Assembly (NCBI GenBank): GCA_020201155.1
Contig: JAIVHI010000167.1
Location: 5,688 to 69,687, forward strand
DNA length: 64,000 bases
Reading direction: 5' to 3'
Source of the DNA: Loktanella sp.
GTDB lineage: Bacteria > Pseudomonadota > Alphaproteobacteria > Rhodobacterales > Rhodobacteraceae
Positions 34,352 through 39,249 of this stretch are shown here, in pieces. Each line of letters opens with the position of its first letter. Within the stretch, counting starts at the first letter, position 1. The notes beneath the pieces were generated by a model, which was given only the letters and a program-made list of their open reading frames with translations, was not told where the DNA came from and did no database searches. Both the position numbers and the translations under genes were made by a program.

Positions 34352-35230
34352 TTATTCGCCCGGAACCCGCGACGCACTCATATCGAGGGGCGCGAACTGT
34401 CGGGCCTGCGCCTGCACAAGATGCGCAAGCGCCGCCTCACCGGGGCAGGACGGGATCGACGCAATCGCACCGGACAGGATATCTTTCAACCGCGCCTTCG
34501 CGCCATCGACACCGAGCTGCGTCACCGCACTGGGCCGACCGTGCAGATCGTCCTGACCGGCAGGTTTGCCCAGCTCGCTTTCGCCACACAGGGCATCGCG
34601 CAGATCGTCGGCCACCTGAAAGGCTTCGCCGATTCGCAGGCCAAGCTCTTCCCACGGCTCCGGGTCCTGGCCGGCTGCCACGGCCCCCATGGTCGTGGCG
34701 GCCATGAAAAGGGCGGCTGTCTTCGCGCGATGGTAGGCGGACAGGTCGATCTTCGCTTCGCTTTCCCATCCCTGCCCCGCGCAAATCCCGTCGGGCATGC
34801 CGCTGCGCTGCGCCAGAAGGCCGATCAGCGTCGCGGCCCTTGCAGGATCGCTGCCCGCCGCGCGGGCCAATGTCTCGAACGCCATGATGATCAGACTGTC
34901 GCCGGTCAGCACCGCGATCGACTCTGACGTGGCGCGATGAACGGACGGCTTGCCGCGCCGCAGATCGGCATCGTCGAAACAGGGCAGATCGTCGTGAACA
35001 AGGGACGCGCAGTGCAAAAGCTCCAGCGCCGCACCCGCCGCGTCGGCCAGCGCGGGGTTCCTGTCACCGCAGGCCTTGGCCACGCTCAACAGAATAACCG
35101 GCCTGATTCGCGCACCCCCCGGGTTCACCGCATAGTCCAGCGCCCCGGCCAGCCGCTGCGGCGCAACGCCGCTTTGTCCCCGTACAATCGCAGCCGCTAC
35201 AGCTGTCTCAATACGTGTCTTGATATCCAT
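34352..35230 (-). CDS. crtE: geranylgeranyl diphosphate synthase
   Basis: Polyprenyl synthase motifs LVHDDLPCFDDADLRRG and FQVADDLRD. ATG 35230 preferred over the GTG at 35239. Confidence 0.9.
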   Translation of the reverse strand: MDIKTRIETAVAAAIVRGQSGVAPQRLAGALDYAVNPGGARIRPVILLSVAKACGDRNPALADAAGAALELLHCASLVHDDLPCFDDADLRRGKPSVHRATSESIAVLTGDSLIIMAFETLARAAGSDPARAATLIGLLAQRSGMPDGICAGQGWESEAKIDLSAYHRAKTAALFMAATTMGAVAAGQDPEPWEELGLRIGEAFQVADDLRDALCGESELGKPAGQDDLHGRPSAVTQLGVDGAKARLKDILSGAIASIPSCPGEAALAHLVQAQARQFAPLDMSASRVPGE

Positions 35231-35253
35231 GCGCGTCACTCCAACGGCCTACC

Positions 35254-35271
35254 TGTCGCAAATCACTGACA
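35254..35271. promoter_or_regulatory. PpsR/CrtJ operator, crtE/crtD divergent region (site 1)
   Basis: TGTCGCAAATCACTGACA is a perfect TGT-N12-ACA. Confidence 0.8.
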
Positions 35272-35277
35272 GTCATG

Positions 35278-35295
35278 TGTCAATTAAACTGGACA
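35278..35295. promoter_or_regulatory. PpsR/CrtJ operator, crtE/crtD divergent region (site 2)
   Basis: TGTCAATTAAACTGGACA is a perfect TGT-N12-ACA. Confidence 0.8.
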
Positions 35296-35298
35296 CTT

Positions 35299-35316
35299 TG
35301 TCTCTCAAAGTCAACA
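35299..35316. promoter_or_regulatory. PpsR/CrtJ operator, crtE/crtD divergent region (site 3)
   Basis: TGTCTCTCAAAGTCAACA is a perfect TGT-N12-ACA. Confidence 0.75.
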
Positions 35317-35324
35317 ATCCCCTT

Positions 35325-36893
35325 ATGCGTGATGAACTGCCTTCCAATTCCGCGACCGCGCCGATCATCGTCATCGGTGCCGGTATCGGTGGCTTGGCGG
35401 CGGCTTTGCAGCTGTCACACGCAGGCGTCGCCGTGACCGTGCTGGAAAGCGCCGGCGCCCCCGGCGGCAAGATCCGCACGGTGCCCACGTCCGCCGGCCC
35501 CAGCGACGCAGGCCCGACGGTTCTGACCATGCGCGGCGTCTTCGAGACTCTGTTCGCTGACGCCGGTGAACGGCTACCGGATCACGTGACCCTGCACCCC
35601 CTGCCCGTTCTGGCGCGGCATTTCTGGCCGGACGGCACAACGCTCGACCTGCACGACGACCCGGACCGGACCGCCGCAGAGATCACCCGCACCTTCGGTC
35701 CCGACACAGCCCGCGACTACTCCCGCCACGGCGACCGTGCAGCGCGCCTGTTCGACGCCTTCGACGCACCGATGATGCAAACCGCAAAACCCTCGTTGCT
35801 ATCCATCATTGCAACAGTCGCGGCGCAGCCTGCGCTTGTGCGGGACATGGCCCCGCACCAAAGCCTTGCCACGCAACTGGACCGCACCTTCACCGACGCC
35901 CGCATGGCGCAGCTTTACGCCCGCTACGCCACCTACGTCGGCGGCACACCTGACCAGGCCCCTGCCCTGCTCAACCTCGTCAGCCACGCCGAGGCCAGCG
36001 GCGTCTGGCGGGTCGAGGGCGGCATGCAGGCCCTGCCCCACGCCATCGCCGATCTGGCCCGCGCGCGGGGCGCGACCTTCCACTACAACACGCCCGTGAC
36101 CGCCCTTCAGCGCGACACACACGGCTGGACCGTCAAGACGGCGAATGGCCCGCACCACGCATCCGGCGTCATCTTCAACGGCGACCCCCGCGCCCTGAAC
36201 GATGGCAGGCTCGGGCCACAGGTCACAAAGGCCGTGCCGGACAGCGCGACCACACCGCGCAGCCTGTCTGCCGTGGTGCTCAGCTTTGCGGCTACGGCCC
36301 AGGGGACCGATCTGTCGCACCACAACGTTTTCTTTTCCGACACCCCCAACGCCGAATTCACGCCAATCCGCGCAGGGCGCTTGCCCGACGACTTCAGCCT
36401 CTATCTTTGCGCACAGGACGCCCACAAAGGCGGGCTTGGCCGGTTCGAGGTCATCCTGAACGCGCCCCCCGGCCTGACCCTGACGCCAGAGGACAAACAC
36501 CGATGTCTCACCCAGATTCTGACACGCTTCGCCCGCTTCCGTCTGACGTTTCATCCAGCACCGACGGTGGCGGACATGACGACACCGCAGGACTGGGACA
36601 CCCTGTTTCCGGCATCATTGGGGGCGCTCTACGGGCGCAGTCCGGACGGGATGATGGCAGCCTTCAAACGACCGACAGCACGAACGAAGCTCAGGGGGCT
36701 CTATCTGGCGGGGGGCGGGGCGCATCCGGGGGCGGGCGTTCCGATGGCGGCACTCTCGGGCCGGCACGCGGCCGCGGCGATCATGCAGGACCACGCTTTG
36801 ACGTTGCGGTCGGCCCCGACGGCTATGCCTGGTGGTATGTCGACGGGATCAGCGCCGACGAGCACCGCGCCGTTTCGGTCATCGGGTTCATAG
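35325..36893 (+). CDS. crtD: methoxyneurosporene/hydroxyneurosporene desaturase
   Basis: Starts MRDELPSNSATAPIIVIGAGIGGLAAAL (FAD motif), 522 aa, CrtI-family. The tail overlaps the conserved 5' part of crtC. Confidence 0.9.
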   Translation: MRDELPSNSATAPIIVIGAGIGGLAAALQLSHAGVAVTVLESAGAPGGKIRTVPTSAGPSDAGPTVLTMRGVFETLFADAGERLPDHVTLHPLPVLARHFWPDGTTLDLHDDPDRTAAEITRTFGPDTARDYSRHGDRAARLFDAFDAPMMQTAKPSLLSIIATVAAQPALVRDMAPHQSLATQLDRTFTDARMAQLYARYATYVGGTPDQAPALLNLVSHAEASGVWRVEGGMQALPHAIADLARARGATFHYNTPVTALQRDTHGWTVKTANGPHHASGVIFNGDPRALNDGRLGPQVTKAVPDSATTPRSLSAVVLSFAATAQGTDLSHHNVFFSDTPNAEFTPIRAGRLPDDFSLYLCAQDAHKGGLGRFEVILNAPPGLTLTPEDKHRCLTQILTRFARFRLTFHPAPTVADMTTPQDWDTLFPASLGALYGRSPDGMMAAFKRPTARTKLRGLYLAGGGAHPGAGVPMAALSGRHAAAAIMQDHALTLRSAPTAMPGGMSTGSAPTSTAPFRSSGS

Positions 36894-37723
36894 GCTCGGT
36901 CTTTTCGCCCTGGTATGCCTGGAGCGGCAGACGCGACCCGCAGAACCACTGCTGCATCAACGTGGCGACCTACGGGCCAGGCGGGCGGTTTTGCATGACG
37001 GACCGGGGCCGGTCCGCCCTGCGGCAAAGCGCCGACCAGCTGACCATCGGACCGTCAACGATGCACTGGACCGGCAGCGCATTGGTCATCACGCTGAATG
37101 AATGGGCCGCCCCCCCGATCCCCGGAGCGGTCCGCGGCACCATCACCCTGATCCCCACGGGCGTCACGGACGTCGAACTTCCCCTGACGACCGACCGCGC
37201 GCACATCTGGCGACCCTTCGCACCCACCGCCACCATCACCGTCGATCTGGAAGCAAAAGGCTGGCAGTGGGACGGGCACGGCTACTTTGATTCGAACTTC
37301 GGCACCCGCGCGCTGGAAGCCGATTTCGACACATGGACATGGGCCCGCTATCCGCGCGCAAATGGCGGCTCGGCCTGTTTTTACGACGCGGATCGCTGCG
37401 ACGGATCAAGGCTTGCCGCCGCCATGGCCTTTGACGCGGATGGTGCGGCCCGCATGATCGACGCACCCCCCCTGACACCGTTCAAACCCACCGGATGGCG
37501 CATGGACCGCGCCACGCGCGCCGACCCCGGAACGACACCGCGACAGGTCAAACCGATGCTGGATGCACCCTTTTACAGCCGCGCGGCAGTGGAAACGACA
37601 ATCGAGGGCGAAACGGTTCAGGGCGTGCACGAGGCGCTTGATCTGCGTCGCTACCGGTCACCGCTTCTCAAGCCGATGCTGGCCTGCCGCGTGCCGCGCC
37701 GGGCCAAATGGTCGTTCGATTAG
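36503..37723 (+). CDS. crtC: acyclic carotenoid 1,2-hydratase (hydroxyneurosporene synthase); start unresolved
   Basis: The conserved region begins about 36788 (GPRFDVAVGPDGYAWWYVDG..IGFIGSVFSPWYAW..). The only canonical in-frame start upstream is ATG 36503, and the N-terminal extension it gives looks like non-protein sequence. See finding. Confidence 0.75.
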   Translation: MSHPDSDTLRPLPSDVSSSTDGGGHDDTAGLGHPVSGIIGGALRAQSGRDDGSLQTTDSTNEAQGALSGGGRGASGGGRSDGGTLGPARGRGDHAGPRFDVAVGPDGYAWWYVDGISADEHRAVSVIGFIGSVFSPWYAWSGRRDPQNHCCINVATYGPGGRFCMTDRGRSALRQSADQLTIGPSTMHWTGSALVITLNEWAAPPIPGAVRGTITLIPTGVTDVELPLTTDRAHIWRPFAPTATITVDLEAKGWQWDGHGYFDSNFGTRALEADFDTWTWARYPRANGGSACFYDADRCDGSRLAAAMAFDADGAARMIDAPPLTPFKPTGWRMDRATRADPGTTPRQVKPMLDAPFYSRAAVETTIEGETVQGVHEALDLRRYRSPLLKPMLACRVPRRAKWSFD

Positions 37724-38199
37724 GCTTCGTTGATCTTCAACGGCTGCACCTGCGGGTTCAGCTGCGCCACTTTCCAGTTCAGCGCCGTGGCGATGGTCGT
37801 CCAGACCAGATAGGGCACAAAGGCCAGACCGGCCCACATATCGACCTGCCAATGGGTGATGGTCGCACCCAGCACGGCCAACCACAGCATCCCGATAACC
37901 GGCAGCGCGCCGCGCAGGCGGCGCAACCCGAAAAAGACCGGTGTCCAAAGCGTGGCGAACGCGCCCTGTAGCGCCCAGAAGGCCAGCGCAACGCTGCTGC
38001 CTTCCATCATCGCCACACGCGCACCCGCGAAAGAGATCAGCAGGTAGATCGAGGTCCAAACCACCGGAAACACCCAGTTGGGCGGCGTCCAGCTTGGCTT
38101 TTCAAGCTTCACATACCATGCGCCGGGCGGAAAAACCGCGCCGGTCGTACCTGCGCCCATACAGGCCAGCAGGAACACGAAAAACAGCCAGAAGCTCAT
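37720..38199 (-). CDS. tspO: tryptophan-rich sensory protein TspO (CrtK)
   Basis: 159 aa, 5 TM helices, Trp-rich (..WYVKLEKPSWTPPNWVFPVVWTSIY..). Its stop overlaps the crtC stop convergently. Confidence 0.9.
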   Translation of the reverse strand: MSFWLFFVFLLACMGAGTTGAVFPPGAWYVKLEKPSWTPPNWVFPVVWTSIYLLISFAGARVAMMEGSSVALAFWALQGAFATLWTPVFFGLRRLRGALPVIGMLWLAVLGATITHWQVDMWAGLAFVPYLVWTTIATALNWKVAQLNPQVQPLKINEA

Positions 38200-38223
38200 A
38201 GAAATGCCCTTTCACGGCAGTGG

Positions 38224-39249
38224 CTACCCCTGAGGAGATGCACCCTGTTCGCGCCGTTTCAAGTCCGCAAGAACCGAAAGCACAGCACTCGTGCGGCCTT
38301 CGGGCACGGCCGCGCGGGGTGCGGTGCGCGCCGCGGCGTCCACGAGGAACCGCACTTCATCCAGAGGCCGCGCATAAAGAATGGGGGACCGGGGCATCAT
38401 CAGCGTCCCCCCGGCCCGCGCCGCCGACAGGCCGATCAGGCTCAGTTTGCGCGCCTTCGTCGTGCGGGCCCGCTGGCTCACGCTGTCATATCCGCCCTTG
38501 GCGATCGCCCCGCCAATCGCCGCGTAAATGTGTCGTGCCGCAAAGATGCCGGGCCGTGCGCCGCTGGGAAGACCCTTGATGCCCGCCTCGGACCGCAGGT
38601 AAAGCCGCCGCGCCTCGGCCAGAAGCCGCCGCGTCATCGCGCGCACGCGAGGGTCGGCGGCGGTGGCGGACAAAAGCGCGTCCTCGCTCAGGCCCGCCTC
38701 GTCCAGCCAGTCCAGCGGCAGATAGATCCGCCCCATCCGCGCGTCTTCCCCGATATCGCGGGCGATGTTGGTCAGCTGCATGGCCACGCCCAGATCACAG
38801 GCGCGCGACAGCACGTCGGCATCGCGCACGCGCATCAGCACGCACATCATTGCGCCCACGGCTGCCGCCACGCGGGCGGAATAGGCGCGCACATCGGACA
38901 GCGTGCGATACTGCCGTTCTTGCGCGTCCCATGCCAAGCCTTCGAGCAAAGCATCGGGCAAGGCGCGGGGCATCTCGAACGTCTCGATGATGGCGGTAAA
39001 GGCACGATCCTCGGGCGCGTTCAACGGGCGCCCCGCATAGGCGCGATCCAGCCGGTCCTGCAATCGCAGCACGGCGCGCGCCTTGTGGTCGCCCTCATCC
39101 ACCTCATCATCGGCCAGCCGGCAGAACGCATAAAGCGCCAGTGCCGGATCACGGACCGATTGCGGCAGCAGCTTGGACGCGGCGTGAAACGACAGCGATC
39201 CCGTGCGGATCGCTTCGCGGCAATGGGCAAGATCGGACGCATCAATCAT
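38224..39249 (-). CDS. crtB: phytoene synthase
   Basis: 341 aa (..YAFCRLADDEVD.. ..ARDIGEDARMGRIYLP..). Confidence 0.95.
   Translation of the reverse strand: MIDASDLAHCREAIRTGSLSFHAASKLLPQSVRDPALALYAFCRLADDEVDEGDHKARAVLRLQDRLDRAYAGRPLNAPEDRAFTAIIETFEMPRALPDALLEGLAWDAQERQYRTLSDVRAYSARVAAAVGAMMCVLMRVRDADVLSRACDLGVAMQLTNIARDIGEDARMGRIYLPLDWLDEAGLSEDALLSATAADPRVRAMTRRLLAEARRLYLRSEAGIKGLPSGARPGIFAARHIYAAIGGAIAKGGYDSVSQRARTTKARKLSLIGLSAARAGGTLMMPRSPILYARPLDEVRFLVDAAARTAPRAAVPEGRTSAVLSVLADLKRREQGASPQG

Follow-up and report, generated by a model that had tools for sequence, protein, structure and literature searches.

The junction of crtD and crtC in the window (the whole stretch of 64,000 nucleotides analysed here) raised a question: where does crtC start, given that its conserved sequence sets in while crtD is still open in another frame? 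The window holds part of a photosynthesis gene cluster, and the carotenoid gene context expected for CrtC is present (crtE, crtD, tspO and crtB); the Pfam calls at a near-identical locus, L136, match this context. The genes concerned are listed here, with crtE, tspO and crtB taken from the list of open reading frames (ORFs).

34352-35239, minus strand: crtE
35325-36893, plus strand: crtD (1-hydroxycarotenoid 3,4-desaturase), 522 aa, stop TAG at 36891-36893; NCBIfam NF045637
36503-37723, plus strand: crtC (carotenoid 1,2-hydratase), proposed full gene, 406 aa and stop, with a conserved ATG
37720-38199, minus strand: tspO
38224-39249, minus strand: crtB

In a profile search, crtD scored 655.7 bits against NF045637 (cutoff 580). 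The same 522-residue crtD is called in the near-identical deposited record (L136); its frame is open already from TTG 35220, giving an ORF of 557 residues, and the NF045637 model ends at residue 524 of this ORF, at about 36791. It can be seen in the sequence and in the ORF list, as an earlier note on this DNA had stated, that CrtC-like sequence (GPRFDVAVGPDGYAWWY...) begins at 36788 while crtD runs on to its TAG. The same note was also right that the CrtD tail, ..TAMPGGMSTGSAPTS.., is the other-frame reading of the nucleotides that encode GYAWWYVDGISADE in CrtC. The crtC frame is the crtD frame +2, such that the first position of a crtC codon is the third (wobble) position of a crtD codon, and it is open from 36407 to 37723. 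Upstream of the core, the only canonical in-frame starts are ATG 36503 and TTG 36407. A scan of the frame from 36506 to 36961 for ATG, GTG and TTG found none, bearing out the observation that no such codon occurs from 36506 to well past 36893; the next in-frame starts, GTG 36962 and ATG 36995, both lie deep in the conserved core. ATG 36503 had been described as the only canonical start. It is the sole conserved one, but TTG 36407 is also in frame further upstream; we rejected this TTG as the crtC start, as it is not conserved and stops separate it from the ATG in most relatives.

Our answer to the question is that crtC very probably starts at ATG 36503, inside crtD, in which case 391 nucleotides would be dual-coding and the product would be a long-form CrtC of 406 residues. 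This reading draws on a comparison of junctions among genomes and on structure prediction, and its elements are as follows.

36489-36493, plus strand: Shine-Dalgarno-like GAGGA within the crtD gene, 9 nt upstream of the crtC ATG
36503-36893, plus strand: putative crtD/crtC dual-coding overlap, 391 nt, two frames on the same strand
36503-36787, plus strand: predicted CrtC N-terminal extension, 95 aa, G/S/D/R-rich, in the +2 frame of the crtD C-terminal domain
36788-37720, plus strand: CrtC catalytic core, 311 aa, predicted AttH/Diels-Alderase-like double beta-barrel (AF2, Foldseek)
36792-36893, plus strand: CrtD tail, past the end of the CrtD model, apparently unconstrained and running into the crtC core to a chance stop

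Junctions were compared among 11 relatives of the window genome, 80 named Rhodobacterales genomes (the best 80 of at least 599 matches; the matches listed were all Rhodobacterales) and class- and phylum-level genome samples, from which the distant lineages were taken. The G of GY.WWY, at 36821 in the window, served as the anchor for each junction. The loci are phylogenetically related; the counts given below therefore overstate the number of independent events and are not to be read as independent trials. In the Rhodobacterales loci, the start codon lies at -318 from the anchor (-312 to -330 with small indels), and it is ATG in 87 of 88 and GTG in one. The junction alignment proposed in the earlier note, run across Rhodobacterales and more widely, thus singled out the equivalent of ATG 36503 as the conserved start. 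The crtD codon that supplies the A of this ATG ends in A in 87/88 loci, where 11 NNA codons specifying 10 amino acids are found; A accounts for only 11.9% of crtD third positions. What is conserved at the ATG site is the base, not the CrtD residue. A Shine-Dalgarno-like 4-mer (GGAG, GAGG or AGGA) precedes it, at -17 to -5, in 82 of the 88 loci, compared with 6.3% in the same-phase crtD background, and such a 4-mer is also present in 15 of 20 loci of other alphaproteobacterial families. The RNA around the ATG folds less stably than shuffled sequences (z = +1.3), which argues that the ribosome-binding site is not sequestered.

The same arrangement was found in more distant lineages. The class-level sample yielded 22 further loci (20 other alphaproteobacterial families), 21 of which have crtD upstream in the same frame relation and carry the ATG at -312 to -354. 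Another 7 Rhodobacterales loci, 9 alphaproteobacterial loci of other families and 2 loci of another class were added by the phylum-level sample, and the layout is the same in all. This ATG is present at -312 to -354 in all 30 other-family alphaproteobacterial loci with crtD upstream, and both loci of another class with crtD upstream share it. Because the layout recurs at every crtD-crtC junction examined, in more than 120 genomes that include complete chromosomes, it is not due to chance. No other in-frame crtC start is conserved across the loci; GTG occurs at -114 in 7 of 77 and at -12 in 8 of 77. Starts at these two positions and at 36878 (the position used by short models) were rejected, since each occurs in roughly 10-20% of loci. 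One divergent variant in the same family, L011 (genome G008), has its crtD stop about 100 nt before the CrtC anchor, with an extra 25-30 codons between overlap and core and with candidate ATGs at -417 and -384.

The +2 frame is often open in GC-rich genes, so its openness alone means little; we thus compared it with controls. Between the ATG and the anchor, the crtC frame contains no stops in 9,325 codons (88 loci), where about 191 would be expected from the rate in the same frame further upstream in crtD (672 stops in 32,781 codons, 2.05%). The nearest stop upstream of the ATG is a median of 23 codons away, and it lies within 5 codons in 16 of 89 loci. The paralogue crtI, which has the same C-terminal GxGxHPGxG motif and no overlapping gene, was used as a second control: when read in the equivalent frame, its corresponding stretch in these genomes contains 136 stops among 6,042 codons (2.25%) and is stop-free in only 12 of 57 loci. 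The contrast between the frame from the ATG onward and the frame upstream of it is absolute despite the relatedness of the loci, and these counts show that the crtC frame is kept stop-free exactly from the ATG onward.

Synonymous variation in crtD points the same way. Diversity at its 4-fold sites is 0.60 outside the overlap and 0.46 inside (p = 9e-7), and it reaches its minimum of 0.33 over the 30 codons that adjoin the CrtC core. The criteria for dual coding are thus represented here by a frame that is open beyond the control, by conserved initiation signals and by reduced synonymous variation in the first gene. The overlap measures 298-457 nt across the 88 loci, with 391 nt the commonest length (25 loci); the crtD stop in relatives falls at -17, -11, +28, +52, +58, +61, +70 or +136 from the anchor. 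Taken at the level of sequence, this comparison argues that the crtD/crtC overlap is real and ancient.

What sort of polypeptide would the overlap encode? The earlier note had set ATG 36503 aside with the remark that the extension "does not look like real protein". That judgement does not sit well with an ATG conserved in 87/88 loci, and residues 1-80 of the extension have an AF2 pLDDT of about 31 and are predicted to be disordered; by this model, the odd composition is to be expected of a disordered segment that is overprinted on the conserved C-terminus of CrtD. The extension appears to be under weak sequence constraint, as 13 of the 23 substitutions that distinguish it from a 96%-identical relative (L136) fall on crtC codon position 1; the substitutions seem to follow the crtD pattern. 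Only two loci have a crtC that is not preceded by crtD (L111 and L135). At both, stops occur shortly upstream, the start lies 15-31 codons before the anchor and there is no extension, which suggests that the extension goes with the overlap and not with the enzyme. The extension may be no more than a by-product of where the start lies, or it may serve as a tether to the membrane or to a partner and later be clipped. A shorter CrtC may be produced from the same open frame, a possibility for which the weak constraint on the extension, its dispensability in vitro and its absence from CrtCs without an upstream crtD leave room.

The crtC product scored 488.9 bits against NF045922 (cutoff 400), matching profile positions 1-278 of 278. 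The AF2 model, calculated from a 46-sequence alignment, has a mean pLDDT of 79, with values of 74-83 for residues 81-100 and above 90 from about residue 100. The first predicted core strands comprise residues 108-117 (YAWWYVDGIS) and 123-130, and G107-Y112 is invariant in the 46-sequence alignment; the GYAWWY strand is accordingly modeled as a confident part of the fold. Foldseek matched this model to AttH (2ich), to the fungal Diels-Alderases Phm7, Fsa2 and CghA, to kievitone hydratase and to a 25-phosphosteroid lyase, all with chains of 320-375 aa; the alignments span 327-360 columns. A core of about 311 residues would fit this fold, while a CrtC of 278-281 residues would be left without one and a half core strands. 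With the GYAWWY strand part of the fold, the 278-281-residue "Rhodobacter" model would be truncated, and a functional CrtC shortened at its 5' end, one of the options raised in the earlier note, would lose invariant core strands. Among 27 aligned sequences, with identities as low as 33%, the columns of W236 and D263 do not vary, and those of H234 and Y261 show conservation of 90% or more. The H-x-W and Y-x-D pairs have the spacing of the catalytic residues His239, Trp241, Tyr266 and Asp268 in Rg numbering (PMC4717167). One locus, L130 (G566:C1:12605-13534), has a single in-frame TGA in its CrtC match; it may be a pseudogene or reflect a sequencing error.

How does a CrtC of this size compare with those studied biochemically? 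The long-form, 44-kDa CrtCs of Rubrivivax gelatinosus (RgCrtC) and Thiocapsa roseopersicina (TrCrtC) are active, and they keep full activity when residues 1-45 or 1-57 are removed; TrCrtC is clipped between S57 and S58 (PMC3145076, PMC4717167). The published 44-kDa bands are of recombinant protein (PMC3145076). The papers on these enzymes regard the N-terminus as a membrane anchor, variable and rich in proline, and do not link it to crtD (PMC3145076, PMC4717167). At 406 residues, the protein described here is close to their length of about 405, and it resembles them in having a non-conserved N-terminal part before the same core and the same catalytic H-x-W and Y-x-D columns. It fits the long-form pattern of 400-410 residues, with an extension of about 95-125 residues before the conserved core. 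Unlike the proline-rich N-termini of RgCrtC and TrCrtC, its predicted extension is rich in G, S, D and R. Distant homologues of 400 aa carry an other-frame imprint of the CrtD GGG.HPG.G motif. By these likenesses, the crtC of the window appears to be a further member of the known 44-kDa long-form group.

The steps that we propose are these. The overlap and the crtDC operon of Rhodobacter suggest that crtD and crtC would be read from one mRNA. Ribosomes would start crtC at the internal GAGGA-N9-ATG (36489-36505), 391 nt before the crtD stop, in a frame in which the first codon base is the crtD wobble base. About 95 codons would then be translated across the DNA for the conserved C-terminal FAD-binding part of CrtD, giving the disordered G/S/D/R-rich extension, and translation would go on into the CrtC core from 36788 to complete the 406-residue long form. 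CrtD, for its part, would end at the first stop that its frame meets inside the crtC core sequence. From the conservation described above, we infer that initiation at ATG 36503 takes place in vivo.

It is a separate matter whether the overlap is just a frozen accident. It seems to us rather doubtful that it has been retained as a functional device over hundreds of millions of years; if it has, few long dual-coding regions between two bacterial enzymes would be as well supported. Because ribosomes translating crtD would cover or expose a crtC start that lies within it, CrtC synthesis could be coupled to crtD translation or rationed by it. Another possibility is that the disordered extension holds CrtC at the membrane or on CrtD, with the consequence that 1-hydroxy intermediates would pass directly from hydratase to desaturase.

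Of the competing explanations for the crtC start, the most durable places it at a non-canonical codon (ATC, ATT, CTG or similar) near the core and leaves the upstream open frame untranslated. Two codons in the window are relevant to it.

36848-36850, plus strand: ATC, at the position of a non-canonical crtC start in a 96%-identical genome (GCA_046497235.1), 291-aa model
36878-36880, plus strand: GTC, where the 278-aa "Rhodobacter-type" model begins by NF045922 alignment; not a start codon here

NCBI-style models of 291-308 aa with assorted starts speak for such an origin. They include that of GCA_046497235.1, in which the protein P0001 begins with MSADGH at the ATC AGC GCC of L136 (L136:2501), equivalent to 36848 in the window. 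The weak constraint on the extension and its dispensability in vitro (PMC4717167) are also in keeping with it. However, the annotated starts vary from genome to genome, and no start near the core is conserved across the loci, so this option of the earlier note found no conserved candidate. With a start at ATC 36848, the protein would lack the invariant GYAWWY strand, a confident part of the AF2 fold. A near-core start would also leave unexplained both the invariant ATG with its Shine-Dalgarno sequence 318 nt upstream and the frame that is stop-free from that ATG. We thus regard a non-canonical start as improbable. The possibility that orthologs normally begin at the equivalent of about 36880 fared no better: at the start position of the short models (+57, window 36878), only about 20 of 92 loci have GTG, and the window has GTC.

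The way in which crtC has been annotated bears on the same point. Homologues from metagenome gene callers are mostly 402-410 aa long and cover 100% of the ORF from ATG 36503. By contrast, NCBI-named CrtC entries have 291-308 aa and differing N-termini, and those of relatives (302-308 aa) start at non-homologous positions. NF045922 aligns to residues 126-404 of the 406-residue ORF (beginning at residue 158 of the frame from 36407), starting with V-I-G-F-I-G. The short "Rhodobacter-type" CrtCs (NF045922, with its 278 positions, and the 32-kDa Fos06 and Fos13 proteins) belong to the same family and have the same core as the CrtC of the window; the difference is that a start at GTC 36878 would remove strand 108-117 and half of strand 123-130. 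The start-site problem is systematic and tied to the 278-position NF045922 model. On our reading, the public gene models of 278-308 aa are calls cut short to avoid the overlap, and the "missing start" is an artefact of gene calling, behind which lies an overlap that is conserved and ancient. The curated "Rhodobacter-type" model and many deposited gene models thus begin about 125 residues late or at invented non-canonical codons. Late-start models lose an invariant beta-strand, and enzymes cloned from them may be inactive, as was one of the 32-kDa constructs of PMC4717167: of Fos06 and Fos13, one could not be expressed and the other had no activity, and two long forms were inactive too.

P0098, a 624-aa protein from a 433-kb ENA contig, follows the CrtD frame to ..FEIIENAPP, enters the crtC frame a little ahead of the conserved MSDT start and continues through all of CrtC. 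Its switch of frame implies that crtD carries, in that assembly, a frameshift ahead of the internal ATG; this is either an error or the mark of a crtD pseudogene with an intact crtC.

A second explanation invokes a programmed -1 frameshift from crtD into the crtC frame, which would yield a CrtD-CrtC fusion protein. Programmed -1 ribosomal frameshifting is known from dnaX and from IS element transposases, and the junction has some of its attributes: the crtC frame is the -1 frame of crtD, and a formal X_XXY_YYZ slippery heptamer, rich in G, lies within the overlap.

36710-36716, plus strand: G_GGG_GGC run in the LAGGG codons of crtD, found in 20/77 loci and not a conserved shift site

The G6 run that the earlier note had pointed to is thus present, although its coordinates are 36710-36715 and not about 36709-36715. 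Very long open frames of 799-803 aa in some relatives could be taken as further support. Against these stand several observations. The G_GGG_GGN heptamer occurs in only 20 of 77 loci, and every other heptamer in at most 8. The 84 nt after the G run fold no better than shuffles (z = +1.0), which argues against a frameshift stimulator there, and a search of 35000-38300 with Rfam for frameshift or regulatory RNA elements gave no match at E<=1. Stops are absent already from the ATG, which lies 208 nt before the G run, and a shift at the run would not require this. Unlike known programmed frameshift sites, this junction has no conserved slippery site, stimulatory structure or Rfam match, and it has an independent ATG and Shine-Dalgarno sequence that are conserved. 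We also rejected in-frame CrtD-CrtC fusions as an account of the frames of about 800 aa, which exist because this frame is commonly open in GC-rich DNA; crtD in those loci is still in the other frame with its own stop, and most loci have stops upstream.

Genetic data from Rhodobacter sphaeroides weigh against the frameshift as well. The crtD nonsense mutant Ga, with a stop at nt 259, retains CrtC activity and still makes hydroxy- and methoxyneurosporene, implying that CrtC is made without full translation of crtD (PMC4331045). All told, a frameshift origin of CrtC is very improbable. Complete deletion of crtD in this organism gave an unstable phenotype (PMC4331045). We infer from the order-wide conservation that R. 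sphaeroides has the same crtD-crtC layout; instability would be expected if the deletion removes the crtC start, which may explain it.

We give almost no credence to the idea that an assembly indel, or decay or 5' truncation of crtC, destroyed a real start in the source genome, a fragmented metagenome-assembled genome (342 contigs, 91% complete): an independent, 96%-identical assembly (L136) differs by 29 substitutions but by no indel in 520 aligned nt of the junction, more than 120 genomes, complete chromosomes included, share the layout, and the crtC frame has no internal stops and retains its catalytic columns. The ATG that an indel had been supposed to restore does exist in the crtD frame, at 36783-36785 and not at 36782.

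With ATG 36503 preferred as the start, the junction can be set beside other overlapping genes. Long same-strand, out-of-frame overlaps that arise by overprinting are common in viruses; in bacteria they are rare and usually doubted. The crtD-crtC pair resembles them in its two frames, in the predicted disorder and odd composition of the newer peptide and in the reduced synonymous diversity of the older frame. It differs from typical overprinting in that only the N-terminal extension of an existing enzyme, and no whole new gene, would be overprinted, and from other overprinted overlaps in its conservation, which extends over two or more classes of proteobacteria. When bacterial genes overlap on the same strand by hundreds of bases, the overlap is usually dismissed as an artefact; the comparative support for this one is unusually clean, and it could serve as a test case for the evolution of overprinted segments. 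A literature search found no mention of a crtD/crtC overlap; the original sequence papers lay outside that search, and an earlier description is possible. In practical terms, editing or deleting the 3' quarter of crtD also affects crtC.

Two features of the flanking DNA were also recorded. At its 3' end, crtC (plus strand, stop at 37721-37723) converges with tspO (minus strand, 37720-38199), and the two genes share 4 nt tail to tail, which leaves no room for a terminator between them. At the other side of the locus, 35240-35324 is a short divergent intergenic region between crtE on the minus strand and crtD on the plus strand; it is the expected place of shared regulatory sites for the crtEF and crtDC operons.
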